The notes under the pieces: model-generated | What the model was told of the DNA's origin: nothing | The model's input: the letters and a program-made list of their open reading frames with translations, nothing else | The model's database searches: none | Shown: positions 11,590-38,500 of the stretch, one piece after another | Position numbering within the stretch: position 1 is the first letter of the stretch | How the letters are laid out: every line of letters begins with the position of its first letter | Assembly (NCBI GenBank): GCA_036172245.1 | Contig: JAYWIR010000026.1 | Coordinates: 2,976,001 to 3,020,693, forward strand | DNA length: 44,693 nucleotides | From: Raillietiella orientalis | Lineage: Eukaryota | Direction of reading: 5' to 3' | Program-made: the position numbers and the translations under genes

Positions 11590-12033
11590 ACGAGGAAGAT
11601 CGTGATAGCCAAGGAGTTTAAACTTTGCCTGCTCTTAGGGGCGTGCTGCACGCAAAAGGTGCCGATCGAGTTGTGATCCGCAATGCGCGCGCGCAACTTG
11701 ATGAAAGGACACTCGGAAATGGGGGACAGCATCAAATTCGTTTCCCTTGACCACGACCTGTGTACTCGGTTTGGTAAACGAGGAAGGCTTCCGTCGACGC
11801 TGTCCGACCATTTCCGTCTGAAGTTCGATGTCTGGCTACGCTATAAGGGACCCCCATCCAGAGCGTGGCGCCTACCGGGGGATTGGACGAGGCTCCCAGG
11901 TGCGGCAGATTATCTCCGTCAATTCCTGAGAGGCGTATTCTCCGGAATCTCGAGGATTGGGACGTCTTCAAGCTTTCGGTCCGCGAATTCTGTGAGGATT
12001 TTCCTATGGGTGGACTTCCCCACGGATTTTGGG
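11590..12033 (+). pseudogene. Element D left piece: decayed APE C-terminus and linker
   Basis: AMRARNL...LSDHFRL...WRLPGDW...SVREFCEDFPMGGLPHGF, ending at the GF(G) codons. Confidence 0.8.
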
Positions 12034-15000
12034 TTGCCCCCCGGGTGGGCCCGAAGCGTTTATTATTAAAACACTACAATAACGTGGTATCAGGCTCCAC
12101 TAACAGCCACACAACACCGGACCTGCCGGGATGCCGGGACGCAGCCCGGCGTGGCACTCTTCGACAGCGAAGGGGGATGGGGTAAAAACAAAAAGCAAAA
12201 ATAAAAACAAAAAGAAAACAAAAAGAAGTTGGAGGGCAAGGACGGGATAACAGTTCACGGGTTGGAGGAACCATCCGTTGAAGGAAGTTCTCAAGGTCCT
12301 TCTGCATAATTGCCAGCAGGGAACATCCATCAGCTCTCCGCATGAAGCTGATTGCATACAGGGAGACTTCCCCCTCGTTTATGTCCCGATCATCGTTGTT
12401 TGGCATCGCTCCAGGCCGCCACGATGCGTAGGACGAAACAAAGTGCTGCGTGGGCTGCGACAGGTTGCAGGGCGTTCCGCACGACGAGGAGGCGGAAAAC
12501 GTCTCTAGGGGTGCTGCCCGTCGGGAGACCCAGGGTCGACCCAAACCGTTCCCAAAGGGGTCCAAGGGCAGCACAATCCACAAAAAGTTGGAAGAGCGAT
12601 TCCCGCTCCCCACATCTGGCACATGCAGGATCCACAGCTCCCCTTGTCCAGTGGAAGCGGCGCGCGTTGCAGGGTAGACCCCAGTGCAACAGAAGCAACG
12701 CCGACTCTTGCCACTCAAGGAGCAGAATCCTGGATTCTAACATAAGCGGGGGCCACTTCAGCACATCCATGGGAATATCGAGTAGCTCGCCCGATCTCTG
12801 TATTCCTCGGAGCTGAACGATCGGGGTCGTGGCGTCGGCAAGTGATCCTGTAGTCCAGCCGCTCGTCAACTTCTCGCGTCCCTCGATGCAGCAGGAGACT
12901 TGCCACCTTGGCGTCCGGCTGCTGTGAAGTGCCCTTATCAGGAAGAACAGCGCCGTAGCTAAACAGGTCGTCTCTGCCCACGTGCTTCTTGCTGGACTCT
13001 CCAGGAGATTCCGCAGCGTGCAGTAAGCGTAGGGGCTGCATCGGAGACGATTCCACGTCTCGTGGTTCCTCTGGTTAAAGACTGCCCACGTACCAATATT
13101 CTCTTCAAGCAACGCGGGGGAGTTGGCGGGGCAGCAAACCATCCACCTGTTCTCCTTGGCCAATGTTGCCATGCGCTCGAGCAGTAGGCCGCATATTCGC
13201 ATCTTCCGGCCACGGCTCAAAAGAAAAGACGCGAGTCCATCGCACCGGGACACACGGCTGGCAAGGAGGCGGGCCGGAGTGCACAGAAGGGTGCTCCACA
13301 TCTACGCTGCGATGGCGAGGGTTCGCCACCGCAGCTGCTTCTCCACGCGCTCCAGCGTCAGGAGGCCAAGACCGCCGTCCAGACGAGAAGCGCGCAAGTC
13401 CTTCAAAGGGACTCGGGGCCCCCCCTTGCCCCAAAGGGCGATACGGAGGAGGTCCTTTGTCCTCTTCTTGGATTCCACGGTGGAAGGGCAAACAAAAAAC
13501 AAGGGGCGAAGGATGTGGGCCTCAAAGGCGTTCCTAACCGCGGCCAGTTCCGGCAAGTGAAACTTACCTTCGAGGAACGGGCCGATCGCCGTCTCGACTT
13601 TTTGGAGGCAGCTGGAACACGCTTCCGCAGGGGAGTAGTCCCCCAACGGCACACCAAGGTACTTGAAGCACCTCGCCGTGGGGATCCCCAGACGGACCCA
13701 GTCCTGCTGCCCTGCCCACGCCGCACCTATTGGCACAACCGACGACTTCGCCCTGTTAACCTGCAGTCCGGTCCCGCGGCTGAGCAGATCGAAGAAGTCT
13801 CCGACCGCCTTTGCCGGGGTGGACATCGGCAACAAAAGCAGAAGATCGTCGGCGTACGCTGCTACGGCGGGCGTGCCGGGGCACGAGCTCGGCAAGGGGG
13901 CCAAAGTCACCCTGTACGCTCTCAGCACCAACTCAAAGTAGGTGCTAAAGAGCAGGGGACTGAGGCTGTCGCCCTGCCGTATGCCCCGCCGTACCGGCAC
14001 GCCGTACGCCATTTGACCTCTGAAAGAGATATTGATCAGCGCGCTGCGCCAGCAAGAGCGCAGGTAGGTCAGTAGGGAGGGAGGGAAGCCCATGCGTCCC
14101 AGGAGCTCCAGCAGGAGATCCTGGTCCAAGCAGTCAAACGCTTTGTGCAGATCGACTGCGATCGCTAGGGCTCCCTTCCCCACCTGGGAGTCCTGTCCCT
14201 GCCCGGCTGACGCCCCCAAAGCGGGGCTGCCAATCCTTCCCTCTTCCTTTTCTTCACTAGTCTGCACATGAAACCATGTGCTCGCGAAGAAGAGGTGGCC
14301 TCCATACTTCGCCCTGGAACAGCGTAAGTCTACTCCGGGCTAATTATGGAATTGGCCACCTGCCCGAGACGCGAAGCCCACAGTCCGGCGATCAACTTGG
14401 CGTCCGTGTTCACAATTGTGATCGGACGCCAGTTGCTGAGTTCCCTGAGGTCTCCTCCTTTCGGAAGGAGCCTCACTCTGGCTGACCGAAACGAGGCGGG
14501 TACATCGCCTTCATCTCGGATCAGCCTTGTCAACTCAAGCACCAGGAGTGCCAACTCTGCCGCGAAGCATTGAAAAATCTCCGCAGGCAGGCCGTCTTCC
14601 CCTGGTGCTTTCCGCCTCTTGAGCCTTTTGATACCGGCGAGAATTTCGCCGGTGGTAAAAGGCTCGTCGAGGCTTTCCTTCTCCTCCTCCCCTATTGCCG
14701 GGGCACCGTTCGGAAGCAAGCGCCAAGAGGTATCTTGGTCCGGGGGCGCCCTGGCGTAAGGGAGGAATGAAAACGCCGCACGAGGTGCCGTATTCTAGCC
14801 GGAGCCGAGTGCTCCCGGCCCTGGTCGTCCAGCAAGCTGGCCGATCCGGATTGCCAGGCTTGACGTTCGGCCTCGGCTCGGTACTCTGCCAGGCGACGGA
14901 CATTGGGGGTCCTCTCGTACCGGCGGGCTTGTAAATAAGCCCTATGGTTCCGAGCCCCCTACCCAAATCCGGGGGGCAGGCGGTGCAGGGGAAACTCCTC

Positions 15001-15383
15001 GCAGAACTCGCGGACCGAGGCCTTGAAGAGGTCCCAATCCTTGAGACTGCGGAGGGTGACGCCTCTCAGGAATTCGCGAAGGTGTTCCTTCGCACCTGAG
15101 AGTCGCGTCCAGTCCCCCGGCAGACGCCAATCCCTGGATGGCGGTCCTTTGTCGCGAGGCCGCATCTCGAACATTAGCCGGGAATGGTCCGACAACGTCG
15201 ACACAACCCTCCCCCGTTTGCCGACGCGTGAACACAGGTCAGCGTCCAGGAAGACGTGGTCGATGCTGCGGACCATTCCTTTCTCACCCGCGAACAAGTT
15301 GCGCGCACGCATGGCGGCGCACAACTCGTTCATCGCGTTCTCTTGTGTTTCTGGCTCACCTGTTAGCAGACGGAGATTGAAAT
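12034..15383 (-). mobile_element. Element A, 3' part (APE C-terminus, RT, zf-RVT, 3' UTR)
   Basis: FNLRLL...SDH, KAPGEDGLPAE, WRPITIVNTDAK, VDLHKAFD, GIRQGDSLSPLLF, AYADD, KYLG, CARCGERES; terminus AATAAACGC-TTCGGG-CCCA-CCCGGG-GGGCAA at 12034-12064; several lesions. Confidence 0.9.
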
Positions 15384-15696
15384 TTATCACCCGGTCACGC
15401 CGGGGCGTTTATTAATAATAATAAACTGGTCAGGGACAATGTCCCCAACCAAGAGAACGACAGAGAACATAGAAAAATTACCGGCACGCAGGCCTGGTAA
15501 ACAAACCGCTCGCAGCGTGGGGGGAATGAGGGGAAACAAACAAAAATCAAAAACTGGAGGGAAGGGTAACGGGTTTTTGGTTAGGCTCCGTACTCACGGG
15601 GATTCATACGATGAGCACCTAAAATGTTCCGGAGCCTATGGGGACGCGGGTGTAAAAAGAAAATACAAATTTAGTTTATGGAGGGTAGGGCAATGA

Positions 15697-18600
15697 TCAC
15701 CGGGTTGGCCGCTGATGATGGTGTGTAAACCGGCGGTGTATTGCGGCGAGATTCCTCTTTGTCTCCTCTGTCAAATGAGGCCATCTAGCGGATGCTCCCA
15801 TGTAGAAGGATGCTTTGCTGATTACCTCTTGGTGCTGTCCGTTGATTACCAACGCCTGGCGGACGGAAACTATCGCGCGTATGCAACCGATGGTTGCAAT
15901 CCTTGCGCTTAGTGAAAGCCTGCTCGGCGTGAAGAATCGTCGCAGCAAGTCTCTTGCGGTGTCCACGGGATGCAATAGTGCTGTTGCTGCCTACGCCACA
16001 GTCCTTGTAGGACACCGCAGTCCAGAAGTAGGTACGGAATCGACTCCGTGGATCCGCACCGAACGCAGTTCGCAGACGCAAGTCCCCCGGAGTCACGATG
16101 CCAACGCTCGTTGCACTGAAAACCCCAGTGAACGAAAAGCAGCACGGCTTGTTTCCAAGCAAGGGGGAGCAGCGAACTGTCCATACACTGTGGAGGGACT
16201 ACAAGTTCTTCGGGGGTGACAGCAAGTTCTTCTGCCCACCGGAGGAGTCCCTTTGCAGTAACACGAGGAGTGGCGGCGTCCGCCAACTCACTTGTCTTCC
16301 AGGTGCCAAGGAGTTTGGTTCTTCCCGCTATCGTGCAGGAAAACTCCCACCTCGCCGGTTGGTAACTGTCGTTTCTTGCCCTGAGGGCAGACAGCGCTGC
16401 GGCAAGAGGCGTGGCAGCCAGGGTAGAAAACTTCACCTCGTACTGCAGTACTTCTTCCAAGGATCGTGGAAAAAATTGGCGCAGGGGGCGAAGATCTTCA
16501 GGGCGTATTCCTTGGAACGCCGCCCAGGATTCAACAGACTCCTGGCGCCAAGCTTCAAAGTTCATTGGGCGGCAGGAGATCCAAGAGTGTGCTTCCAGAA
16601 GTGCGGTCAACTGCCGCAATGGAAAACCGAAACCCCGCTTTCTGTATTGAGTGCCCGGCAAAAGCGAGAGAAATCCTCCGCTGCCGGCGCATCTCCGCAG
16701 GAGAATGCGAGCTGGCACACACAGGGGGGATGTCCATAGCTGGGCACACAGTGCCAGCAGTCGGAACTGCACCTGCAGTCCGATTCGCTCCATTGTCAGG
16801 ATACCCAAACCGGCATCCCGACGCGGAGCTGACAAATCTTTAAGGCGGATCCTGGATCTCGCCGGACCCCAGAGAGCGTTCCTGAGCAGGCGCTTAGCCC
16901 GCTGTTTTGCCGCATAGGGGGGGTCCAAAACAAAAAACAGGGGACGAAGGAGGGGGGCCACAAAGGTGTTCCAAATAGTCGCCCGTTCCTGCAAGGTAAA
17001 CTTGCCGTTAAAGAACGGGCTGATGGCCAACTCTGCTTTCTGAAGACAGTCCGCTCACGCTTCGGCTGCGCCGAAAGCGCCCAACGGAACGCCAAGGTAC
17101 TTAAAGTACCCGCCCGTGGGGATCCCCAGGCGGATCCAGTCGGACTGCCCCTCCCACGACGTACCCACAGGAACGACCACGCTCTTCTCTCTGTTCACGC
17201 TCACGCCCGCTCCCCGACGAATCAGGTCGAAAAAATCCTCGACACTGGACGCCGGGGTGGACATGGGGAGCAGAAGAAGCAGGTCATCAGCGTAGGCGGC
17301 CACGGCAGGCGTTCCCGGGCAGGAGCTTGGCAAGTGAGACAGCGTCAGCCTGGATGCTCTTAGCACCAACTCAAAGAAGATGCTGAAGAGCAACGGGCTT
17401 AAGCTGTCGCCCTGTCGGATGCCCCTACGAACGGGAATACCATACACGCGGCAGCCGCTGAAAGTAATGCAGGTTAGCGCGTGGCGCCAGCACACGCGCA
17501 AATACAGCAGGAGTTGCGCCGGGAACCCAAGGCGTTCCATAAGCTCCAAAAGCAGCTTCTGGTTTACGCAGTCGAACGCCTTGTGGAGATCGACCGCGAC
17601 CGCCAAGGCACCTGGCGTTCCCTCCTGCCGTCGGCGCCTGTTCTTTTTGCCTGCAACAGTGACTTTCGCAGCAGCTTGGCTTTGCTGCGCCACAACTTCC
17701 TGCAGCTGCATCCATGTACGCGCGAAAAGGATGTTCGCCTCCATGGATCGTCCCGGAACCGCGTAGGTTTGTTCCGGGCTCACCACAGATTCCGCGATTC
17801 TTCCTAACCGCGCGACCCACAGATTGGAAAACAACTTGACGTCCGAGTTCACCAAGGTGATCGGACGCCAGTTGTTAAGTTGGCGCAAGTCTCCGCCTTT
17901 CGGCAGGAGACGCACCTTCGCTGAGCGGAAGGAATCAGGGACATTCCCGGATTCACTCATCAGCGTCGCGAGTTTAAGCATCAAGGGAATGAGCTCCACT
18001 GCAAAGCACTGATGAAACTCTGCAGGGAGCCCATCCTGGCCTGGCGCCTTTCGTCTCTTCAGCCCAGAGATGGCGGACGAAAATTCATGCGCCGTGAAGG
18101 GCTCGTCGAGACGTTCGCGTTCCTACTCGCCGACAACACGAGCATCCTGAGACAGGAGTATCTCAGAAAGAATATCCTCCGTCGGGGATTCCGCGTAGAG
18201 CGAGGAGTAGTAGCGTCTCACAATGCGGCGTACTTCGGCTGGGGCCGAACATTCCTGGCCCTTGTCGTCCAACAGGCATGCTGCTCCGGACTGCCAGACC
18301 TGGCGCTCGGCCTTCGCCTTGTACTCTGCGAGACGCCCGACATCCGCGCGTCTCGAAAACGTGCGGGCCTGCAGAAAGTCTCTACTGTTGGCCACGCCCT
18401 CTCCGAAACCGCGTGGAAGCCGGTGCAAGGGGAATTGGCAACAGAACTCGCGGACAGATCTTTTGAGATCGTCCCAGTCCGCAAGTTCTTGAATGGCAAA
18501 GCCTCGGAGGTATCCACGTAGATGCTCCGCAGCCTACGGTTGGGTAAGCCAATCCGCCTGCATCCTCCAGTTTTGCAACGGAGGTCCCCTGCCTGGCGGA

Positions 18601-19289
18601 AGGATCTCAAACTCCAACCTGTGGTGGTCAGAAAGCCTAGTCAACAATCTTCCTCTCCTACCCACACGCGAATGCAGGTTTTCATCCAGGAAAACGTGAT
18701 CGAGCGATCTTTCCATTCCAGGTTCGCTGACCGTCAAGTTGGCAACGTGCACGGACGCGCACATCTCGATGGGAAGCGCGCGCTCCCTCGGGCGGCTCCA
18801 ATCGTCGGAGAGCAGGCGGACGTTGAAGTCCCCAGCGACGAGGTGCGCCACTTGGAAGCCGGAGTTGTTGAGCCACTGGCTCTGCACCTCACCAAAGAAA
18901 GCTACTCTTTCTTCGAGGTAGCGAGAGCCACTCGGCGCGTAGACGTTCGTAACGACGAGATCGATGGACTCGGACCACTTGATGACAAGCTGGCATATCC
19001 GTCCGTTGTCATCGAAACGAACACTACGCACCGCTTCCGCCATTTTTCCTCTTACGAGGAACGCGACGCCGCACGTGTGTGCGCCGCCGCACCGCCAATG
19101 TAGCCTTCCGCCTGCGCGCTCCTCGATTTCGGCTGCCTGCTCGTCGGAGATTACGTGAATCTCCTGCAGCAGCGCGAGTTCGAAGGGGCGCAGTGCGTTG
19201 GCTACTAATCGCCTCTTCTCGTCGTTCTGCAGTCCGTTCACGTTCCAACACGTTACGGACAGACGACGAGAAGACGCGATTCCCCGCAT
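15697..19289 (-). pseudogene. B ORF2 (APE-RT-zf-RVT), frameshifts and stops
   Basis: MRGIASSRRLSVTCWNVNGL..LLQEIH..NVYAP..AGDFN..SLDHVF..SDH; RT with GIRQGDSLSP and YADD; CVRCGSTESIPYLLLDC. Confidence 0.9.
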
Positions 19290-21233
19290 TACTGCTGGGA
19301 AGGTGGCGGCTTCTTGCTCGCTTTATCCGGCGAGCAGACGGCGAGCAGCACGACTGGCTGGAGGGGACGGTCGCCACCGTCCTCTGTCGTGCTGCATGCA
19401 TGTAATGCCTCCACGCCAGGCTGAACCCCGTCGGGTTTCGTGGAGACTTCGCGTTGCTTCGCGGCGAGCGTTGCCTGGCTGCCTACTTTTGATCGGCGCG
19501 CACACGCTTTCGAACGAGTTGTCCTCGTCTCGGTGATCGGAACGGCATCCATTTCGGAGTCCGACCGGCGCATGTTCGATCGGGTTTCGGCCTTCCGCAA
19601 AGCAGTGACAGGTTCTGCTGGATTGACAGCTGTCCTGTTTTCGTTTTCCGTCACCAGAGCATCGCTTTTGGTGACGGCTGCTTTCCCGGCGCGCGCGTTT
19701 TCAGCGTGCTCACGCGCAATTGCACGAGGGACCTTTGCTGAAGTCTTCTTTACTTCATTACGGTTCCTCACTTCGCGTGGCGCCGCAAATGGAGATTGTG
19801 CTCCATGGCCATCTTTGAAGCCATCCGCGTCTTTGGACGGGAGCACTTTCGATGGCTCCGACACGCTCGTCATGGACGCTGCTTTCGGAAGGGCTTTTAA
19901 TCCCTTCGTTGGCATGGCATCCGCGCCAGTCCAGAGCTTGCTCTCCGACTGCGACGGCGTGAGATTTTTCTCCGCTTTCGCGGTGTTGGATCGCGACGCG
20001 GATTTTTTTTTGCCGACTTTCGAAGTCGACACGGCGCAACCCTTCTTACCCGATTTGGGCTTCTCAGCCACTGCAGGAGGTGAAGGAATGGATCTGACGG
20101 TACTGGAAGTGTCCTTACCGCCGTTGTCCATTGGCGTCCCCGCCGGTTGCTCGAACTCCGAGAGAGCCTGCGTGCTTGGGAAGGACACCTATTGCGCCTA
20201 GGGGGACTTACCATTGCCCCGGATTCCCCGCACCCTTTCTTTTCGGCTCCCCTGCCGCGAGAGGGGGTGCGCAGGGCTTTGCGTGCGAGGTTTCCTGCTG
20301 CTTTGGGGCGACATTCCGCCTCGCGTTTTTACCGAATTTCTGCCGTGGGGTCTCCAGGTTTTTCGCAGATTTTTTCTTTTTATCCGCGCTTTGTTTTCCA
20401 GGATGGAGCTCCGCGGCTGCCTTTTTTCGCATGAGATCCGGGCAATTTTTCAATTGGTGCCCGGATAGTTTGCAATAACGGCATTTTCCAGAGGGGCATT
20501 TATCCAAACAATGCCCCTCCTTCCCGCATTGCTCGCACGTTTTTACTTTGCCCACGAACCACAGGTGAACGACCGTGTCTTTCACCTGTAGTTTCGTGGG
20601 CAGCAGACGGCGGTCCGGCATTGTAAGCCGGACTCCAGCGACTCCGCTGTGTATGGACGAGAAGTTCTTGAGGTTGCTACGCACCCTCCACAGCGCATGG
20701 ACCGTGGCGAATTTTGCCAACGCGTTCCGAATATCAGTATCGGAGATTTCCGACTCGATGTCGAAAATCTCCACCACAAATGAGTCGTCCATGGCGGCCG
20801 GGAAGACCTTCTGGCCACGGATCGACAGCGGGGTGCGCAGCAAGCGTTGCACAAGTGCAGCGTCTTTGCAACGCACCTTGAAATAGCCCATGTCTTTTAC
20901 GGGCATAATGGCGAGAAGGTCCTTCTCCCGCACGCCAACACGGGTCAGTTCATCGTTGAACTGATTCCCGTCGCGCGCAGAAAGAAAACCACTCACCTTA
21001 TATCGGAGAGCAGGTCTATAGCCTTGGGCTACATATGCCCGCAACTCCGACTCGTCGAGTGGTTTCCCTTTGACGGCTGCTGTGGCAGCAACGTCAGCAA
21101 AACCCCTCTCCATTGGCGAGAAAGACGAGGTGGAGGCGGCCGTCGGTTCCGCGATTGCAGATCCAGATGCTGTTCCTCCAACTTCAGTAGCTTCAAGTTG
21201 GGTCGACATCGTCGTCAAAATGTACAACGCCAA
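19289..21233 (-). pseudogene. B ORF1 (RRM-like region plus two CCHC knuckles plus long basic/disordered tail), broken near 20190-20215
   Basis: CEQCGKEGHCLDKCPSGKCRYCKLSGHQLKNCP; ORFs 20208..21233 and 19289..20188. Confidence 0.85.
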
Positions 21234-21270
21234 GATGAAGCGGATGAAAGCACGGAGACGAGAGCGAAGA

Positions 21271-21287
21271 AAAACACGTCCGCACTC
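21271..21287 (-). promoter_or_regulatory. Conserved 5'-terminal motif G(A/G)GTG(C)GGACGTG(T/C)TTT (representative copy)
   Basis: GGACGTG within ~7-11 nt of the 5' end in A, B, C, E and F; variants in G (GGACAGG) and J (CGACGTG). Confidence 0.55.
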
Positions 21288-21296
21288 GATTGAAAT

Positions 21297-23606
21297 CTCC
21301 CGCTATCAGGTGAGCCTTCCGCACGTTCGTGTCCGCCAGCCAGTCGCGCTTCAGGGAATCCAGCAGCCTGGTACGGTCGCTGTATCCCTGTTTACCGCTG
21401 GGGGCGTACACATTCGTGACGATCAATTCGATCGAGTCGGACCAGTTGAGAATCAGCTGACCGACCCGACCGTCGTCATCGAAGCGCACGCCCTTCACGG
21501 CCGCGTCGATGGCCGGCTTCACGAAGAACGCGACCCCGCAGGTGTTGCGGAGGCCGCACCGCCAATACAGCCGACCCCCCGCGATCGTCTCGATCTCTTG
21601 GGCGTCTGCCGCGGTGATCACGTGGATCTCCTGCAGCAGGGCCAGGTCGAGCTCACGCAGGGTGTCGGCCGTATCTCGCCTGTTACCGTCGTCGCGCAGC
21701 CCGTTGACGTTCCAACAGGCGGCGCGAATCCGACGGCGACTGGCGAGCCCAGGTGTTCTTCCTGGGAAGATGGCGATGCGGCGTCCGCCACCTGTTGGGG
21801 CGGGACGCTAGGTGGAGGAGGAGGGTCAGGCGCTGCGTGCACCTGGTCCCCCTCCTCCATGGGCAACGGCGCGTCGAGGGGGTCACCCTTAAGTGGGGTG
21901 GCGCCTACCTGTTGGCCCTCCTCCATGGGGGCGGGCTGTTCAGGCTCGGCGACTGCAGGGAGGACTTCGCCCCCCTGCTCACCCTCCTCCATGGGGGTGG
22001 CCGGCTCGACGGCTTCCGAACGTTGGAGTTCCCCCTCCGGGATTCCCACGCCACCGCTACCTTCCTGCTTCTCCTCCTCGCTGGTGGAAGGGAGGCGCCT
22101 CCTGGGTTTCTGGGACTTGCGTCCCGACTTCATGGGGGGTGCCTCCGAGGAGGAGGATGCACTTCCGGCCCCCAGGTCCGACTCACCTGTGGGGGCCTTT
22201 TTCGCGGGAGCCGGCCTTCGCACGGCCTTGCGTGAGGGGTTCTCACGCTCCGCCAGCGTGGCCGCGAGCTCCTCCGCCGCCTTTGCGAACGCGGCGTCCG
22301 CAGTGTCGACCGGCGCGTCGCGCGGCTCACCCTCTGTGTAAACAGAGGGTTCGCCGTCGCCAACCTCGGGCGCGGCGGAAACGGCGAGGGAAGGCTCGTC
22401 GCCCCGGGTGGCAATCTCGGGAACGGCTATGCGCTCCAGTGCTACCGTACACTCCCGCATGGTCTTAGAGCGCGGCCCAGGTTTTTTCACCTTGCCGGCT
22501 GTCTTTTTTACCGCTTTCGCGGGTTCCGCGGGGTGCACCTTTTTCTCCTTCCTGGCCTTGACCAGCTGCCAGCCGTCTTGGACTCCCGTATCTTCGGAGG
22601 GTTTTTCTTCCGACGCCTGTGTGGGAGGAACAGGGGCTAGCGGCTGCTGCCGGCCAGTATCTCTTTTTGGTCTTTCGACCAGTTTACTGCGTTTTGCCTG
22701 TGCTTTTTTTGCAGCAGGCGGCACCGGAGTGGGGCGTTTAGGGCATACGCGGCGTACGTGGCCCTTCTCCCCGCATAAGTGGCACACAATGTTCGGGCAC
22801 CGCTTGCGCAAGGGTCCTACTGCATTGCAGTAGCCACAAAAGCGGGGTTTCCCCACGTACCAGAGGTCTACGACTTCGCCATTGACCTCTAGTTTGTGGC
22901 GAAGCCCACTCTCGTTCACCGTCACGCGCGCGGCGGCCTGCCCTCCGAAAAGGCTATCGTAGCCATCGAAGATTGTGGCCTTTGGCCAAAGCGCGTGAAC
23001 ATTCCCGTACTTTCTTAACTGATCACCAGCCGCAGACCGCGTCATGCGGCTGGTGATCCCTGTCAGATGGACCACTACGGAGCGGTCCATCGTGACTGGT
23101 AGGATCTTGCGTCCGTCCACGTTCAGCGGGGTGGTTATCAAGCTTTGCGCCAAGGTGATGTCCTTGCAGACAACCTCAACGCGCTGACCCCCGCTTAGCA
23201 CGGAAAGACCGTCAAGGACCTTTTCCAACACGTTGGCGTTCTGCAGCGCTTTCGAAAAATCGCGTGCAGTTCGCCCGTCAAAGAGATTGCCTACCTGGTA
23301 AACCAAGCTGGGCTTGTACCCAGCTGCCCGGTAGGCCGCCATCTCGGCCATGGTTTCAGCGCTCGGCGCGGCCACCATGGCGCTCCAGCTCCTCGCCTTG
23401 AGCGGCGAGGGCGATTCCGGGGCGGACGCCCCTGATTCTGTAGGCTGTGGGGGTGGGCAAGCCTCCATCACACCTACCTCCATCGTGGTGTCCTCAGGCA
23501 TCGCTGCCATCGGACACCAACGATGTTCCGCACTAAACAACACAACAAAAAACCGCTTCCTGTCGACTCACTCGGGAGCGAAGGAAACACACGTCCACTC
23601 GCCAAG
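21297..23606 (-). mobile_element. Element A, 5' part (5' UTR, ORF1, N-terminal APE up to GDFN)
   Basis: Near-identical by eye to C 26960-29269; the APE is cut at AGDFN by B. Confidence 0.92.
21618..23510 (-). CDS. A ORF1 protein (gag-like, RRM-like region plus CCHC knuckles), open reading frame
   Basis: Uninterrupted ORF from MAAMPED; FCGYCNAVGPLRKRCPNIVCHLCGEKGHVRRVCP (first knuckle H>P relative to C). Confidence 0.85.
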   Translation of the reverse strand: MAAMPEDTTMEVGVMEACPPPQPTESGASAPESPSPLKARSWSAMVAAPSAETMAEMAAYRAAGYKPSLVYQVGNLFDGRTARDFSKALQNANVLEKVLDGLSVLSGGQRVEVVCKDITLAQSLITTPLNVDGRKILPVTMDRSVVVHLTGITSRMTRSAAGDQLRKYGNVHALWPKATIFDGYDSLFGGQAAARVTVNESGLRHKLEVNGEVVDLWYVGKPRFCGYCNAVGPLRKRCPNIVCHLCGEKGHVRRVCPKRPTPVPPAAKKAQAKRSKLVERPKRDTGRQQPLAPVPPTQASEEKPSEDTGVQDGWQLVKARKEKKVHPAEPAKAVKKTAGKVKKPGPRSKTMRECTVALERIAVPEIATRGDEPSLAVSAAPEVGDGEPSVYTEGEPRDAPVDTADAAFAKAAEELAATLAERENPSRKAVRRPAPAKKAPTGESDLGAGSASSSSEAPPMKSGRKSQKPRRRLPSTSEEEKQEGSGGVGIPEGELQRSEAVEPATPMEEGEQGGEVLPAVAEPEQPAPMEEGQQVGATPLKGDPLDAPLPMEEGDQVHAAPDPPPPPSVPPQQVADAASPSSQEEHLGSPVAVGFAPPVGTSTGCATTVTGEIRPTPCVSSTWPCCRRST

Positions 23607-23823
23607 GGTTTCGGCGTTGCCACCCGGGTACGCCCGGGGCGTTTATTGATAAACTTTACATGCGTGGTACAAGGCCCCACCACGGCCGTAAACACAGGAC
23701 CTGTCATGACACCGGGACGCAGCCCGGCGTGGCACTCCCCGACAGCGAAGGGGGATGGGGATGAGACAAAAAGTAAAATAAAAAAAGAAACAAACAAAAA
23801 GAAGTTGGAGGGCAGGGAAGGGA

Positions 23824-26800
23824 TCACTGGTCGCTGTGGGGCGGGCCCATCCGTCGAACGAAGCCCTCGAGGTCAGCCTGCATATTCCCCAGTTGGGGCC
23901 ATCCGGCAGCTCTTCGCAAGAAGCGTTTGGCATACGGGATGACATCCCTCGCCTGTGGACCCACTCCTTCGTTGTTGGCGTCGCTCCATGCCGCCACGAT
24001 ACCACGGACGCAGCACAAGGCTGCGATGGCTGCGGCTGGCTGCAGTGCGTCCTTCACGAAGAGGGGCCGAAGAACGTCTCTGGGGGTGCTGCCCGTAGGG
24101 AGCCCGAGGGTCGTCCCGAACCGTTCCCAAAGGGGTCGGAGGGCAGCACAATCCACAATAAGGTGGGGAAGCGACTCCCGCTCCCCGCACCTGGCACACG
24201 CAGGATCCACAGCCCCCCTCGTCCAGTGGAAGCGGCGCGCGTTGCAGGGTAGACCCCAGTGCAACAAAAGCAACGCCGACTCTTGCCACTTGAGGGGCAG
24301 GATCCTGGATTCCTTCATCACCGGGGGCCACTTCAGCTCATCCCTGGGGATGGCGAGCAGCTCGCCCCATCTTAGTAATCCTCGCGGCTGGACGCTCGGG
24401 GTCGAGGCGTCGGCCAGTTCTCCTGTTGTCCAGCCGCTGATCAACTTCTCCCGTCCCTCGATGCAGCAGGAGACTTGCCACCTTGGCTTCCGGGTGCTGT
24501 GAAGTGCCCTCCTTAGGAAGGGTAGCGCCGTAGCTAGGCAGGTCGTCTCTGCCCACGTGCATCTTGCTGAACTCTCCAGGAGATTCCGCAGCGTGCAGCG
24601 GGCGTAGGGGCTGCATCGGAGACGATTCCACGTTTCGTGGCTTCTCTGGTTGACTACTGCCCACGTTCCAATATTCTCCTCCAGCCAGGCGGGGGAGTTG
24701 GCGGGGCAGCAAACCATCCAGCTGTTCTCCTTGGCCAATGTTGCCATGCGCCCGAGCAGTAGGCCGCATCTTCGCATCTTCCGGCCACGGCTCAGAAGAA
24801 AAGACGCGAGTCCATCGCACCGGGACACACGGCTGGCCAGGAGGCGGGCCGGAGTGCACCAAGGGGTGCACCACATCTTCGCTGCGATGGCGAGGGTTCG
24901 CCACCGCAGCTGCTTCTCCAGTCGCTCCAGCGTCAGGAGGCCAAGACCGCCGTCCCGACGCGGAGCGCACAAGTCCTTCAGTGGGACTCGGGGCCTCCCC
25001 TTGCCCCAAAGGGCGATACGGAGGAGGTCCTTCGTCCTCTTCTTGGATTCCACGGTGGGGGGGCAAACAAAAAGCAAGGGGCGGAGGATGGGGCCGCGAA
25101 GGGGTTCCAAACCGCGGCCCGTTCCGGCAAGTGAAACTTGCCTTCCAGGAACGGGCCGATCGCCGTCTCGACTTTTTGGAGGCAGCTGGACCACGCTTCC
25201 GCAGGGGAGTAGTCCCCCAACGGCACACCAAGGTACTTGAAGCACCTCGCCGTGGGGATCCCCAGACGGACCCAGTCCTGCTGCCCTGCCCACGCCGCAC
25301 CTATTGGCACAACCGACGACTTCGCCCTGTAAACCTGCAGTCCGGTCCCGCGGCTGAGCAGATCGAAGAAGTCTCCGACCGCCTTTGCCGGGGTGGACAT
25401 TGGCAACAAAAGCAGAAGATCGTCGGCGTACGCTGCTACGGCGGGCGTGCCGGGGCACGAGCTCGGCAATGGGGCCAAAGTCACCCTGTACGCTCTCAGC
25501 ACCAACTCAAAGTAGGTGCTGAAGAGCAGGGGGCTGAGGCTATCTCCCTGCCTTATGCCCCGCCGCACCGGCACGCCATACACCTTTTGACCGCTGAAAG
25601 AGACGGTAATTATCGCATTCCGCCAGCAAGAGCGCAGGTAGGAAATCAGGGAGGGTGGAAAGCCCATGCGACCCAGGAGCTCCAAGAGAAGTTCCTGGTC
25701 TACACAGTCGAACGCCTTGTGGAGATCGACTGCGAGCGCTAGGGCCCCCTTCCCCGCCCGGGGGTCCCTTTCCAGCCCGGCTGGCGGCCCCAATGTGGGG
25801 TTGCCGACTTTCCCTATCCCTTTCTTCTCTCTTCTCTGCAGGTGCACCCATGTGCTTGCGAAGAAGAGGTTGGCATCCATACTTCGCCCGGGAACAGCAT
25901 AAGTCTGCTCCGGGCTAATTACGGATTCTGCCACCTGCCCCAGACGCGAAGCCCATAGCCCTGCGATCAACTTGGCGTCCGTATTCACGATCGTGATCGG
26001 ACGCCAGTTCTTTAAATCCCTCAGGTCTCCCCCTTTCGGCAGGAGCCTCACTCTGGCTGACCGAAACGAGGCGGGAACATCGCCTTCGTCTCGGATCAGC
26101 CTGATCAACTTAAGCAGCAGGGGTGCCAGCTCTTCCGCGAAGCTCTGAAAGAACTCCGCGGGCAAGCCATCTTCCCCTGGAGCTTTACGCCTCTTGAGCC
26201 TTTTGATACCGGCGAGAATTTCGCCGGTGGTAAAAGGCTCGTCGAGGCTTTCCATCTCCTCCTCCCCTCTTGCCGGGGCGCCATCCGGAAGCAAGCGCTG
26301 AGAGGCGTTTCGATCCGGGGGCTCCCTGGCGTAAAGGGAGGAATAGAAACTCCGCACGAGATGCCGTACCGACGCCGGGGACGAACATTCCCGGCCTTGG
26401 TCGTCCAGCAAGCTGGCCGACCCGGATTGCCAGGCGTGGCGTTCGGCCCCGGCGCGGTACTCGGCCAGGCGACGAACATTAAAGGTTCTCGCGTACCTAC
26501 CAGCCTGTAAATAGGCCCACTGGTTGCGAGCACCCTTGTTGAATCCGGGGGGCAGGCGATCCAGGGGGAACTTCTCACAGAACTCGCGGACCGATTCTTT
26601 AAAAAGGTCCCAGTCCTGGAGATTCCGGAGCGTGACGCCTCTCAGGTATTCGCGAAGGTGTTCCTTCGCACCTGAGAGTCGCGTCCAGTCCCCCGGCAGA
26701 CGCCAATCCCTGGATGGCGGTCCCTTGTCACGAGGCCGCATCTCGAAAATTAACCGGGAATGGTCCGACAACGTCGACGCAACCCTCCCCCGTTTGCCGA

Positions 26801-27419
26801 CCCGTGAACACAGGTCAGCGTCGAGGAAGACGTGGTCGATGCTGCGGACCATTCCCCTCTCACCCGCGAACAAGTTGCGCGCACGCATGGCGGCGCACAA
26901 CTCGTTCATCGCGTTCTCTTGTGTTTCTGGCTCACCTGTTAGCAGACGGAGATTGAAATCTCCCGCTATCAGGTGAGCATTCCGCACGTTCGTGTCCGCC
27001 AGCCAGTCGCGCTTCAGGGAATCCAGCAGCCTGGTACGGTCGCTGTATCCCTGTTTACCGCTGGGGGCGTACACATTCGTGACGATCAATTCGATCGAGT
27101 CGGACCAGCTGAGAATCAGCTGACCGACCCGACCGTCGTCATCGAAGCGCACGCCCTTCACGGCCGCGTCGATGGTCTGCTTCACGAAGAACGCGACCCC
27201 GCAGGTGTTGCGGAGGCCGCACCGCCAATACAGCCGACCCCCCGCGATCGTCTCGATCTCCTGGGCGTCTGCCGCGGTGATCACGTGGATCTCCTGCAGC
27301 AGGGCCAGGTCGAGCTCACGCAGGGTGGCGGCCGTATCTCGTCTGTTACCGTCGTAGCGCAGGGCGTTGACGTTCCAACAGGAGGCGCGAATCCGACGGC
27401 GACTGGCGAGCCCAGGTGT
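23824..27419 (-). CDS. C ORF2 APE-RT-zf-RVT (~1200 aa), one frameshift near 25092, no AUG start
   Basis: ORFs 24978..27284 and 23824..25458 join; motifs WNVN, QEIH, NVYAP, GDFN, IDH, SDH, PGEDG, WRPI, DLHKAFD, RQGDSLSP, YADD, YLG, CARCGERESLPHLIVDC. Confidence 0.88.
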
Positions 27420-29172
27420 TTTTCCTGGGAAGATGGAGATGCGGCGTCCGCCACCTGTTGGGGCGGGACGCTAGGTGGAGGAGGAGGGTCAGGCGCTGCG
27501 TGCACCTGGTCCCCCTCCTCCATGGGTAACGGCGCGTCGAGGGGGTCACCCTTAAGTGGGGTCGCGCCTACCTGTTGGCCCTCCTCCATGGGGGCGGGCT
27601 GTTCAGGCTCGGCGACTGCGGGGAGGACTTCGCCCCCCTGCTCACCCTCCGCCATGGGGGTGGCCGGCTCGACGGCTTCCGAGCGTGGGAGTTCCCCCTC
27701 CGGGATTCCCACGCCACCGCTACCTTCCTGCTTCTCCTCCTCGCTGGTGGAGGGGAGGCGCCTCCTGGGTTTCTGGGACTTGCGTCCCGACTTCCTGGGG
27801 GGTGCCTCCGAGGAGGAATATGCACTTCCGGCCCCTAGGTCCGACTCACCTGTGGGGGCCTTTTTCGCGGGAGCCGGCCTTCGCACGGCCTTGCGTGAGG
27901 GGTTCTCACGCTCCGCCAGCGTGGCCGCGAGCTCCTCCGCCGCCTTTGCGAACGCGGCGTCCGCAGTGTCGACCGGCGCGTCGCGCGGCTCACCCTCTGT
28001 GTAAACAGAGGGTTCGTCGTCGCGAACCTCGGGCGCGGCGGAAACGGCGAGGGAAGGCTCGTCGCCCCGGGTGGCAATCTCGGGAACGGCTATGCGCTCC
28101 AGTGCTACCGTACATTCCCGCATGGTCTTAGAGCGCGGCCCAGGTTTTTTCGCCTTGCCGGCTGTCTTTTTTACCGCTTTCGCGGGTTCCGCGGGGTGCA
28201 CCTTTTTCTCCTTCCTGGCCTTGACCAGCTGCCAGCCGTCTTGGACTCCCGCGTCTTCGGAGGGTTTTTCTTCCGACGCCTGTGTGGGAGGAACAGGGGC
28301 TAGCGGCTGCTGCCGGCCAGTATCTCTTTTTGGTCTTTCGACCAGTTTACTGCGTTTTGCCTGTGCTTTTTTGCAGCAGGCGGCACCGGAGTGGGGCGTT
28401 TAGGGCATACGCGGCGTACGTGGCCCTTCTCCCCGCATAAGTGGCACACAATGTTCGGGCACCGCTTGCGCAAGTGTCCTACTGCATTGCAGTAGCCACA
28501 AAAGCGGGGTTTCCCCACGTACCAGAGGTCTACGACTTCGTCATTGACCTCTAGTTTGTGGGGAAGCCCACTCTCCTTCACCGTCACGCGCGCGGCGGCC
28601 TGCCCTCCGAAAAGGCTATCGTAGCCATCGAAGATTGTGGCCTTTGGCCATAGCGCGTGAACATCTCCATAGTTTCTTAACTGATCACCAACCGCAGACC
28701 GCGTCATACGGCTGGTGATCCCTGTCAGATGGACCACTACGGAGCGGTCCATCGTGACTGGTAGGATCTTGCGTCCGTCCACGTACAGCGGGGTGGTTAT
28801 CAAGCTTTGCGCCAAGGTGATGTCCTTGCAGACAACCTCAACGCGCTGACCCCCGCTTAGCACGGATAGACCGTCAAGGTCCTTTTCCAATACGTTGGCG
28901 TTCTGCAGCGCTTTCGAAAAAGCGCGTGCAGTTCGCCCGTCAAAGAGATTGCCTACCTGGTAAACCAAGCTGGGCTTGTACCCAGCTGCCCGGTAGGCCG
29001 CAATCTCGGCCATGGTTTCCGCGCTCGGCGCGGCCACCATGGCGCTCCAGCTCCTCGCCTTGAGCGGCGAGGGCGATTCCGGGGCGGACGCCCCTGATTC
29101 TGTAGGCTGTGGGGGTGGGCAAGCCTCCCCCACACCTACCTCCATCGTGGTGTCCTCAGGCATCGCTGCCAT
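27281..29172 (-). CDS. C ORF1, one frameshift near 28370
   Basis: ORFs 28300..29268 and 27281..28201; CGYCNAVGHLRKRC and CHLCGEKGHVRRVC knuckles. Confidence 0.85.
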
Positions 29173-29269
29173 CGGACACCAACGATGTTCCACACTAACC
29201 AACACAACAAAAAAACCGCTTCCTATCGACTCACTCGGGAGCGAAGGAAAAACACGTCCACTCGCCAAG

Positions 29270-29685
29270 GGATTCGGCGGAGGGCTGAGGAACGACCGGG
29301 CATACCACCACGCCCGTCTTTACTCTAGGACTCCCGATGTGCGACGCCTGGCGGAGTATAAAGCTGGGGCTGAGCGACAGACCTGGCAATCCGGGTCGCC
29401 CAGCCTGCTGGACGCCCAAGGCCAAGAATGCTCAGCTCCGGCGAGAATAAACCGCATCCTGCGGGACTATTACTCCTCCTTGTACGCGTGTAGAACAACA
29501 GAGAACGCCGTGGCGCAGCGCTTGCTGCCGCAAGGCGCTCCCGCGCTGCAAGAGGAGCAGGCACATGTACTCGCGGAGCCTTTCTCAATGGCAGAGATCG
29601 TCTCCGCCATCGGAAAGCTCCGAAAGAGAAAAGCACCAGGGGAAGACGGTCTGCCCGCGGAGTTCTACCAAGGCTTCCTGGCGGA
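29270..29685 (+). pseudogene. Element D right piece: linker and start of RT
   Basis: GFGGGLRNDRAY...RRLAEY...YSSLY...KAPGEDGLPAEFYQGF, collinear continuation of the 11590-12033 piece. Confidence 0.85.
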
Positions 29686-35078: not shown

Positions 35079-35302
35079 TCCCTTCCCTGCCCCCTTCCTC
35101 TCCCCATACAACTGTTTCCCTCCCCGTTATCTCTCTTTTTGTTTGTTTTTGTTTTAGTTTTCCCTTCCCATGCGCCTCGGGAATTGACCTAACCGGTGAA
35201 TGCACCGGCAACCGATACGTCAACTAAGGTGGGAAAACCAAGTGTTTCCCACAATCAACGTTTGAAAGACTTTATTATCTAATTTTTGTAGAAAATTAGA
35301 AT

Positions 35303-35332
35303 AATAAATGCCCCGGCATATCCGGGTGGCAA
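35303..35332 (+). terminator. Family 3' terminus: poly(A) signal plus GC hairpin (representative copy)
   Basis: AATAAA 35303-35308; CCCGG/CCGGG stem 35312-35326; same layout at 6378, 7594, 12034, 15384, 23617, 41087 and 41150. Confidence 0.7.
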
Positions 35333-35587
35333 ACTTCGGCTGCAGCCGAGCATTCCTGGCCAGCGTCATCGAGCAGACAATTTGCTTTAAACTTCCAAAC
35401 CTGGCGCTCAGCCCTGGCCTTGTACTCCGCCAGACGCCGGACGTCCGGGCATCGGGAGAAAATACGCGTCTTCAAATAGGATCTGCTGTTCGCGACACCC
35501 TCCTCGAAGCCGCAAGGAAGCAAGTGCAAGGGGAACCGGCAGCAGAACTCGCGGATCGTTCTTTTCATTTCGTCCTAGTCCTCGAGC
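35333..35587 (-). pseudogene. K: B-like ORF2 linker fragment hosting E and G (other scraps at 41117-41150 and 29694-29708)
   Basis: LED*DEMKRTIREFCCRFPLH...GVANSR...QECSAAAEV; 41117-41150 supplies the upstream YLLGFVISEL and 29694-29708 the downstream RRIV. Confidence 0.8.
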
Positions 35588-38500
35588 GAGAGCGGACAGG
35601 CTTTTGTTTCGCTCTTGAGCGTTTGTGGTTTTATTTTTTTTTCTTTTTTTTCATGGTGTGCCAGTGGATTCGGTGGTGGCTAGGCAGCAATGCCTGGGAC
35701 CACCACCAATGTTAAGGAGGGGGCGACGTCTATGTCGCCTCCTGAATCAATGGATGTGGGGGCAACCGCCCCCACAGAAGCGACTCCCTCGCTAGGGAGA
35801 AGCTGGAGTTCCGTGGCTGCGGCGCCAACGCAAGCGGCTGCGGCTGAATTAAAAGCCTACCTGAAGGTGGGGTACAATCCCCCTCTACTCTACAAAATAG
35901 GCAACCTTTACTCCTTTAATAGTGCACGCGCTTTCTCGAAAGCGATGCACTCCTTCAAAGTACCACAGGAGGAGCTCTTGGCGATGACCATCAGGAGTGG
36001 TGGACAGTACGTTGAGGTGATTTGCAAAGAAGCAAGTCTTGCCCGACGTTTGCTCCGTACACCTGTTCCTTTAGGAAATCGCCAGCCCTCCCCTTCAGGG
36101 AGGATAGACCTATCGTGATCCACCTCCTCGGAATAACCTTCCGGATGGCCGAAGAGGCTGTCCGAAGAAAACTAGTTAAATTTGGAACTGTCCACGCGTT
36201 GTGGAAAAGGCCTACTCCGTTTTGGGTGTACGATCTCCTGAATTCCGGTATGGCTTCCGCGCGCATCACGGTCCGCGCGGGTTGCTCCCTACCTAACAAG
36301 CTGGAGATCAACGGCGAACCCGTTGACATCTGGTATGTCGGTAAGCCGCATTTCTGCGGGAATTGCAGCACTTCAGGTCACCTGAAAAAAAGATTCCTTC
36401 ACTTTCAGTGCAAGCAATGCAAGCAATCCAGGCACACACTTCCAGTGTGCACATAAAATGAAGTCCGCGTCGCGTCCGCACGGAATGCGAAGAAGCGCGC
36501 GGCGAGAAAAAGACGCATTCAGGCAGCCCAAGAGAGAGCTGCCTCTCGAAAAACAACTATCGTGCTCCAGGTGAAGGTCAGCTAAGAGATCTTGGATAAC
36601 TCGGACAAGGTCGAGGAGAACGGCCAGGAACCTGGATGGCAGGTAGTGAATACCAAGAGGCAGAAAAGCCTTAAGGAATCAAAAAAAAATGTCGCAAAAC
36701 GCAGCGAGAATTTGCCGCGTCGCGAAAATATCAAATGCTGCTCTGTCGTCATCAAGCGCATTCCTGCGGTCGAAAAGAGCGGCAAAAATGCACTCGTCGC
36801 TGCCGACTCTCAGCCCTCCGGCAAATTAAAGCCGGAAGCTATCGACCCGGCGGAGGCGTTCGTCGTCGAACGCATGCTCGACGACGTCGCCTTTGAGCGA
36901 GCGGCGTAGGAGCTCGCTGCGTCCTTGCAGCATCCCCTTAAATCCTCGAAAAAGGCCTTAAGGCGTCCGACCTCGATCAAGAAGTCGGAGATTCCGAACT
37001 CTGACGCAGAGGCGGAAAACACAGCCTGCGGCATCGCGTCCTCCCGCCCGAAGGCCAATCGCACGAAGAAGGCTACCCGCAAAATTATCCAGTCCGTGGA
37101 AAAGGAAGAGATAATTGAGGGAAGCGAGCGTGCGAATAAAGTGGGGAACTCCGGGGACTCTCCTCGAGAGGTAACTTCACGCTGTGACCCCGGAGGGAGG
37201 GAAGGGTAGAGTCTCTGCCCCAGATGCTTCAAGTGCCTGAGATGGCCGCGGTACACTTACTCGTCCCTCCCACGTGTCCGTTGACGTGCTGCAACGCCAC
37301 GTTCCCAGCCTTAATACCGGGAATAGCCTCTTGCCGCCGTCTGCGAATTGCCTGTTGGAACGTCAACGGGAGAAGCGAACACGGCAAGAGACGAGACGTG
37401 GCCCCCACCCTGGCATCGTTCGACCTGGTGCTGCTGCAAGAGATCCACGTGATCTCCGCAGATCAAGCAACGGAGATCGAGCGTATCTCAAGTGGACGGC
37501 TGCTGTGGCGTTGCGGCACCGTTAAATCTTGCGGTGTCGCGTTCCTGCTTCGTCCAGCTGTTGAGGCTGCGGCAAAGGGCGTACGGTTCAACAGTGCAGG
37601 TCGCGTCGAGCAGTTGACCATCAGGTGGTCCGACTCCATCGATCTGGACATAACCAAAGTGTACGCCCCTAGCGGCAGGGACGCGCAAAGGGCAAAGGCA
37701 AGGAGAAATTTCTTCCTTACCCTGAAACGCGAATACCTGGACGAAGCGGGAGTGCGCAAAGCGCAAGTAATCGCAGGTGACTTTAACCTGCGCCTGCTGT
37801 CAGGTGCGTCCGACACAGTTCGGGACCGCGTGAACGAGCTGTACGCAGAGATGCGCACACGCAACTTGTTTGCGGGAGATCCGGAAATGGCCGACAGCAT
37901 AGATCACGTGTTTCTTGACCAGCACCTATGCTCACGCGTGGGCAGGCGCGGCAAGTTACCGTCGGAACTGTCGGACCATGACCGGATCGTACTCGAGGTG
38001 CGCCCACGCGATAGGGGTCCGCCGTCATCTGCGTGGCGCTTACCGGGGGACTGGCTGAAACTTACGGAAGCCGCGGATTATCTCCGCGTATTCATACGAG
38101 GTTTCAGCTTGCAGACGCTTCAGGAATGGGACCGCTTCAAGCAATCGGTCCGGAATTTTTGCGACGAGTTCCTTATGAACCTCCTGCCTGCCGGGTTTGG
38201 TGAAAGCGTGCGTAACGAGAGATGGTATTTACAATCTCGATGTTACGCGCGAACACCAGACGTACGCAGGCTAGCCGAATACAGTGCGGGAGCCGAGAGG
38301 CAGGCGTGGCAATCCGGGTCGGCCAGCTTACTGGACGACCAGGGTTCGGAGCACTCGGCCCCCGCCCAGGTAAAAGGCTTATTAAAAAAATTCTATTCCT
38401 CCCTGTACGCGCGCGCTCCACCAACGGGATGTCTCGCGACTCCTTCTTCCGGAAGGCGCTTTGGCAATCGGGGAGGAAGATAGAAAGACCCTCGACGAGC

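Follow-up and report, generated by a model that had tools for sequence, protein, structure and literature searches.

How is the second open reading frame (ORF2) of an L1-like retrotransposon translated when no AUG is present where it begins? This question is raised by the window studied here, the last 44.7 kb of a contig (210-Mb assembly), which is filled with nested APE-type LINEs. Five ORF1/ORF2 junctions are found in it: those of copies C (27419), A (21756) and B (19289) on the minus strand and those of copies D (31477) and E (37314) on the plus strand. All features of A, B, C and F (the remainder of A) described below are on the minus strand. The junction sequences are as reported in an earlier note on this DNA, with TCC CAG CAG TAA TG in B (19300-19287), TCC CAG GAA AAA CA in C and TCC CAG GAA GAA CA in A. 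In both A and C, ORF1 overruns into ORF2 for 46 codons, including the altered stop, up to a TGA (27281-27283 in C, 21618-21620 in A), and ORF2 is in the -1 frame, starting with ACA CCT GGG at 27419 and 21756, respectively. The G_GAA_AAA sequence of C is also present as described (27425-27419). From these features it had been proposed that the subfamily has lost its ORF1 stop, and has switched from stop-start coupling either to -1 frameshifting, generating an ORF1-ORF2 fusion, or to non-AUG initiation.

Copy C (23617..29269) is a full-length L1-like LINE of the AUG-less subfamily AC1 and is dead, having 1-nt deletions near 28369 (ORF1) and near 25093 (ORF2); L135, in which ORF2 is intact, is 97.8% identical to it. 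Its ORF1 (27419..29172) has its Met at 29172 and CCHC zinc knuckles, and reads AAA where the family has the stop codon TAA (27421-27419); the run-on over the APE start (27281..27421) is caused by this private stop loss. ORF2 (23824..27419), with APE, RT and zf-RVT regions, starts with ACA at 27419-27417, in the register of the ATG of the sister families, and its first ATG is codon 171 (26909). The frame is closed upstream by an in-frame TAG (27471..27473), separated from the ACA by 17 sense codons (about 16 had been claimed) without an ATG; this TAG is present in AC1, AC2 and family G and absent in family H. The 5' part of copy A (21288..23606) has its ORF1 Met at 23510, GAA at the position of the stop (21758-21756) and the ACA of ORF2 at 21756, and it is cut near APE codon 156 by copy B (15384..21287). 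Copy B belongs to a TAATG family (junction 19291-19287), and its insertion into A/F has duplicated 9 bp (15375-15383 and 21288-21296). The 3' remainder of the A element, F (12017..15383), is a mosaic: some stretches are 6% and others 14-24% from the AC1 reference copy, a pattern suggestive of exchange between subfamilies by recombination. At the left end of the window, an RT-encoding frame of another element, at least 642 codons long, runs off the sequence (2-1927, minus strand).

As judged from the ORF2 domains, the ORF1 zinc knuckles and the target duplications, A and C are L1-like, APE-type non-LTR retrotransposons, probably of the L1/Tx1 group. The Pfam domains Exo_endo_phos and RVT_1 are found on the ORF2 of C, zf-RVT is found on the sister copy D (below its cut-off), and zf-CCHC is found in the ORF1 of C, upstream of ORF2. 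The top ORF2 homologues have all three ORF2 domains at 22-35% identity, and the best PDB matches are human L1 EN and ORF2p. Only distant relatives, of at most 35% identity, are obtained in this homologue search, and the trait is not traceable by it into other organisms. Near-duplicated target 10-mers flank 11 of the 11 full-length AC1 copies printed, which is a mark of retrotransposition; in the window, the target-like 10-mer at 23607..23616 is common to the 3' end of C and the 5' end of A, and occurs also at the 5' end of C (29270-29279). The single 3' ends of B, D and E in the window are at other targets than those of AC1.

The junction census separates the two losses seen in A and C. When searching with a junction pattern in which the five central bases are free, 103 exact matches are found, and the 100 listed comprise 96 with TAACA, one with TGACA, one with TTACA, one with GAACA (copy A) and one with AAACA (copy C). 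Among these 100 of the 103, ACA is present in all, ATG in none and a stop in 97. The earlier note had advised checking whether copies of this type lack both the stop and the ATG; this is borne out for the ATG (0/100 listed) and contradicted for the stop (kept in 97/100 listed). With a TAANN pattern and up to two mismatches, 465 matches are found, 99 of the 100 listed having TAACA, and the 30 nearest loci are all TAACA except A and C themselves. The contrary possibility, that most copies have TAATG, is not what is observed either, as the TAATG pattern has one match genome-wide (up to one mismatch), which reads TAATA. A wider-lineage pattern, built on one divergent TAACA copy, has 183 matches, the 100 listed including 82 with TAACA, 8 with TAGCA and none with TAATG; its two-mismatch class includes AC copies, so that it overlaps partially with the AC set. 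Reversed-pattern controls for the junction, TAANN, TAATG and wider-lineage patterns have no matches. The stop loss is private to A and C, and the AUG loss is general in the lineage. The register of the SART1-type UAAUG overlap is kept, but as UAACA, with UAAUG itself being found in the sister families of B and E.

The lost stop and G_GAA_AAA, on which the frameshift reading was founded, are private to dead copies; this reading is left unsupported, and the ORF1 run-on as a subfamily trait is rejected by the same census. The suggestion that A and C descend from one mutant is not upheld, because they have different bases at the lost T and are not closer to each other than other AC1 pairs, sharing 5 derived alleles over ~2,320 sites (median 3, maximum 17 among 171 AC1 pairs). 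The TAA is kept in L141 and L139, the closest fetched relatives of C. That the same base is struck twice in two adjacent copies remains a coincidence, with an assembly error near the contig end as a possible alternative.

Two further candidates were considered at the junction and rejected. An ATA overlapping the stop is discarded as a start codon, as the commonest variant has GTA and others have TTA or CTA at this position. Copy E, reading TAATA (37312-37316), is discarded as the representative of a second AUG-less family, as its TAATA is private and ATG is present in 25 of the 29 family-E regions, the family having TAATG. The TAGCA junctions (8/100 listed; L212-L216) are a variant of family G with a shared diagnostic upstream base; they were considered as a sign that codon 1 might be free (ACA or GCA), and the 5 copies fetched of the 8 listed all break within 200 nt of the junction.

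The position of the AUG loss in the wider lineage is seen when comparing the 186 distinct junction regions in the fetched loci, which fall into 14 clusters. The AUG clusters have TAATG (B, E and three small ones), TGATG (two), TAG, 5 nt and ATG (one) or TAA, 8 nt and ATG (D). The sister families thus keep stop and start together by different junctions, as predicted for coupling. In one sister family (L171:290-310 and four other cluster-1 copies) the ORF1 stop is shifted two codons upstream and is still beside the start (TAG, 5 nt, ATG). The 20 wider-lineage matches that were fetched define the families G and H, and AC, G and H are mutually 76-83% identical. The first 600 nt of ORF2 were used for a maximum-likelihood tree with 42 rows, all from elements of this genome (at most 3 per AUG cluster, one misassigned row omitted, midpoint root). 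Here the 15 AUG-less rows of AC, G and H are on one side of a branch with support 98/99, and the 27 rows of 11 AUG-family clusters are on the other. By this tree, the AUG-less families form one clade, and as AUG states are found on all other branches, a single AUG loss would be the simplest reading. The subfamilies AC1 and AC2, 7-13% apart, both have TAACA. Judged by these divergences, the AUG loss is natural and fixed and has survived ~20% divergence.

The AUG-less reading frame nevertheless appears to have remained functional. When full-length ORF2 is checked in the AC copies, it is open for 1198 codons from the ACA in 4 of the 60 fetched AC-junction loci, the first ATG being codon 171, and in both AC1 and AC2 the majority frame is without a stop over 1198 codons; both ORFs are intact in none of the 60 fetched AC loci. 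The first majority ATG is codon 171 in AC, 79 in G and 178 in H. The motifs NVNG, QE, NVY and GDFN, which align with the human L1 endonuclease, precede codon 171, and NVNG and QE precede codon 79, such that an AUG-initiated product would lack the endonuclease active site. For codons 1-78, the majority-codon dN/dS is 0.23, 0.14, 0.18, 0.13 and 0.08 for five family pairs (p 0.02 to 1e-9), where the pairs are not independent, transitions are weighted 3:1, and the 15, 8, 8 and 4 copies used were picked for being unbroken. In the +1 and +2 frames over the same codons, dN/dS is 1.06-2.09, which is neutral. A neutral dN/dS of 1.1-1.8 is likewise obtained between families for the ORF1 run-on frame, which in family G is closed after 11 codons. 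This codon comparison shows purifying selection on the part of ORF2 that precedes every majority ATG; together with the position of the motifs, this implies that translation had to begin upstream of any AUG. The alternative half of the original proposal, a switch from stop-start coupling to non-AUG initiation, is therefore favoured, the AUG loss being fixed in a monophyletic lineage of three families whose AUG-less N-terminus is constrained by purifying selection.

The resolution of these tests is set by the number of differences. In codons 1-9 alone, no pair has more than 1 nonsynonymous and 2 synonymous differences (p >=0.2), too few for detecting protein selection. For the fixed differences between AC1 and AC2, dN/dS is 0.18 in ORF1 and 0.34, 0.24 and 0.34 in ORF2 codons 1-170, 171-500 and 501-1198; the private-mutation control is 0.51-0.63 across regions, and the 0.34 of codons 1-170 is not significantly below its control of 0.55 (Fisher p 0.39), which is itself below 1. 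A hairpin overlaps codons 4-27, and part of the low dN/dS, as well as of the covariation described below, could be a shared constraint.

This downstream hairpin (27339..27409) is predicted to start 10 nt after the start position. In the region +10 to +80, z-scores of -4.0 to -7.0 against codon-preserving shuffles are obtained for 12 of 12 representatives, and four later folding windows are weaker (z +1.0 to -4.5). In 14 representatives, 91% of the cells pair and 5 of the 16 pairs are changed on both sides; the covariation score is reached by none of 500 shuffles, a control that takes no account of relatedness, and RNAalifold gives a small covariation term (-0.21). According to these predictions, the hairpin is conserved with compensatory changes. 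Folding the sequence 3' of the junction, as had been advised, thus gives a conserved predicted structure, which is weakened in C by private substitutions (-28 versus -51 kcal/mol). It is also present in the AUG families and therefore does not single out a mechanism. The motif TTCCCAG also precedes the stop in AUG and AUG-less families alike, in an alignment that leaves out the families cl4 (3-nt deletion) and cl13. At the end of ORF1, a further hairpin is predicted (27444..27471), and a hairpin of different sequence folds here in most sister families. The upstream UGGGA motif of calicivirus TURBS is absent at the junction in the alignment. A small hairpin CCCAGG/CCTGGG (27411..27429), which would hold the stop and the ACA in a 7-nt loop, was rejected as a conserved element, having no covariation support across families in either register.

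The reading that best accommodates these observations, to which a probability of about 0.62 is assigned, is that stop-restart coupling of the SART1 type has become AUG-independent, with the restart at or beside the ACA. A and C would then be dead copies, each with a lost ORF1 stop, from a lineage whose ORF1 stop overlaps the ACA, and the ancestral UAAUG coupling signal would have been kept, with its UG changed into CA. In this scheme, ORF2 would be made from the full-length RNA through termination-reinitiation: after finishing ORF1 at its stop, ribosomes would resume in the -1 frame, on the ACA or next to it. They would probably be aided by the hairpin 10 nt downstream, which may hold the ribosome at the site. 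As about one ORF2p is reportedly made per RNA (PMC4091050), a weak start may be sufficient. Two positions distinguish ACA from AUG, which is described as generally the most efficient codon for reinitiation (PMC10275272). A stronger form of the proposal is more tentative: it is possible, though somewhat less likely than not, that the RT/endonuclease gene of this clade no longer uses any initiator-like codon, hairpin-held ribosomes resuming one base back on ACA, possibly without initiator tRNA. If this is true, the AUG-independent translation of human L1 ORF2, itself unexplained, has an evolved counterpart in this clade, for which the matched TAATG and TAACA sister junctions are natural controls.

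It is also conceivable, but unlikely, that ribosomes scan ~27 nt after the stop and restart at a near-cognate AUH codon, codon 10, generating a shorter N-terminus that begins with the first beta-strand of the endonuclease. In all AUG-less families, codon 10 (27390..27392; ATT in C) is ATT, ATA or ATC, a single mismatch away from AUG, and it is located just before the WNVNG motif that aligns with human L1 EN; the AUG sisters have Leu or Val at this codon, with Ala in one copy. However, its three-way synonymous variation is equally well explained by plain conservation of Ile, it is within the long hairpin, and codons 2-9, which would be left out, retain the G-L/I-A-S/C-x-R-R peptide of the sisters with synonymous GGG/GGA and CGG/AGG changes (not significant). 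A restart at codon 10 is, moreover, the same kind of event as the restart at the ACA, at another codon.

A -1 ribosomal frameshift, or a bypass, at or just before the ORF1 stop, with the stop serving as a pause and an ORF1-ORF2 fusion as the product, is improbable. It would agree with ORF2 being in the -1 frame, which is open for at least 17 codons upstream, and with the strong hairpin that begins 9 nt after the stop, within the usual spacing of a 3' stimulator (5-9 nt downstream), but a conserved X XXY YYZ site is missing, G_GAA_AAA being present in 1 of the 100 copies listed. The pre-stop codon varies across the lineage (GAA, GAG, GAT, GAC, AAA, GCA), and re-pairing of its commonest form, GAG, on GGA would probably be poor. 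The -1 frame upstream of the ACA is neutral (dN/dS 1.0-2.0; 16-17 codons, low power), the CCCAG motif and the hairpin are also present in TAATG families, which need no shift, and an extended ORF1/ORF2 overlap is not found, the stop being kept in 97 of the 100 copies listed. A precedent for such a shift does exist in the L1-like TRE5-A and TRE3-A (PMC5911963).

Splicing is quite improbable. TTCCCAG|G could be a 3' splice site by which a spliced RNA joins an upstream ORF1 exon with its AUG to ORF2, as a pyrimidine run and CAG are present 7 nt before the start position in all AUG-less and most sister families and a phase-1 join would be in frame. Nevertheless, a spliced RNA keeps its 3' end and should leave spliced copies, and no match to an intact downstream junction with foreign upstream sequence is found (exact match; ~40% estimated sensitivity per copy). 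A break at that AG is seen in none of the 60 fetched copies, the motif is shared by TAATG families, and family H has a weak tract.

That the ORF2 of this lineage is untranslated, its copies being made in trans by AUG-bearing sister families, would agree with the lack of copies with both ORFs intact (0/60 fetched) and with the breaks near the junction in 5/5 fetched TAGCA copies, but is highly improbable given the purifying selection on all ORF2 parts on branches inside the AUG-less clade, the majority frame open over 1198 codons in two subfamilies 7-13% apart, and the AC1 copies with their own target duplication.

Termination-reinitiation at the ACA can be compared with several known systems. 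In SART1, a telomeric non-LTR retrotransposon of Bombyx mori, UAAUG coupling needs a downstream structure (PMC5972666, PMC10275272, PMC3894237). In the present junction, the ORF1 stop and the ORF2 start position overlap in the register of SART1 (UAAUG exactly in the sisters B, E and others), and a structure, here predicted, is likewise found downstream. It differs in that ACA replaces AUG across the clade and that ORF2 has zf-RVT and matches L1 ORF2p. The translation of human L1 ORF2 is AUG-independent, but needs a completed upstream ORF (PMC4091050), and AUG mutants of mouse L1 are described as still retrotransposing, at reduced rates (PMC13705589). These elements also have an L1-type APE-RT ORF2 behind an upstream ORF, which can be made without an AUG (PMC4091050, PMC13705589, PMC5972666). 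In the mammalian case, however, the mutants are engineered and the natural AUG is kept behind a 63-nt spacer, whereas the loss described here is natural and fixed and there is no spacer.

In Dictyostelium, TRE5-A and TRE3-A are reported to use a -1 frameshift for ORF2, and NLTR-B has an RT ORF without a start codon (PMC5911963). These are likewise L1-like, with ORF2 in the -1 frame or without a start codon, but the lineage described here has a one-base overlap at a kept stop and no conserved slippery site, and its sisters show an AUG ancestor. The termination-reinitiation of caliciviruses, which depends on TURBS, also has a stop-start overlap, and near-cognate starts are tolerated at reduced efficiency (PMC10275272); unlike there, the best-conserved structure here is downstream. 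The consulted part of a frameshift review (PMC5009743) holds no closer case, frameshift, reinitiation or readthrough are raised as possibilities for Paramecium elements (PMC5405496), and the start of LINE ORF2 translation is referred to as an open question (PMC3894237). No natural LINE clade fixed for an AUG-less stop-start overlap was found in a literature search that had most subscription papers and the Repbase notes outside its scope. What would be new here is a LINE termination-reinitiation that is naturally fixed without an AUG across a clade, the coupling itself being already known.

AUG-independence has so far been shown with engineered L1 mutants (PMC4091050, PMC13705589). The sister junctions with TAATG, TGATG, spaced stop-start and TAACA, all on one hairpin scaffold, are a natural experiment. 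An ATG-based annotation would label the whole TAACA lineage as defective, and lone decayed copies, such as A and C, can imitate a frameshift site.

Some features of the insertions are also observed. The target of the AC1 copies is the ORF2 linker ('LPxGFG' codons) of a related LINE, where they are found in antisense orientation with ~10 bp duplicated; head-to-tail tandems of AC1 are frequent at the duplicated linker target (29270-29279 and 23607-23616 of the window; L122, L127, L129, L136). Family B has one fixed insertion site in the AC endonuclease domain, with a 9-bp duplication (window; L121-L180); this site was read in 39 loci, and in 6 of them it is directly followed by the 5' end of B. 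The 3' ends are without a poly(A) tail; a short GC-rich inverted repeat comes after AATAAA and directly precedes the target (23617-23650, 15384-15415, 35300-35335).
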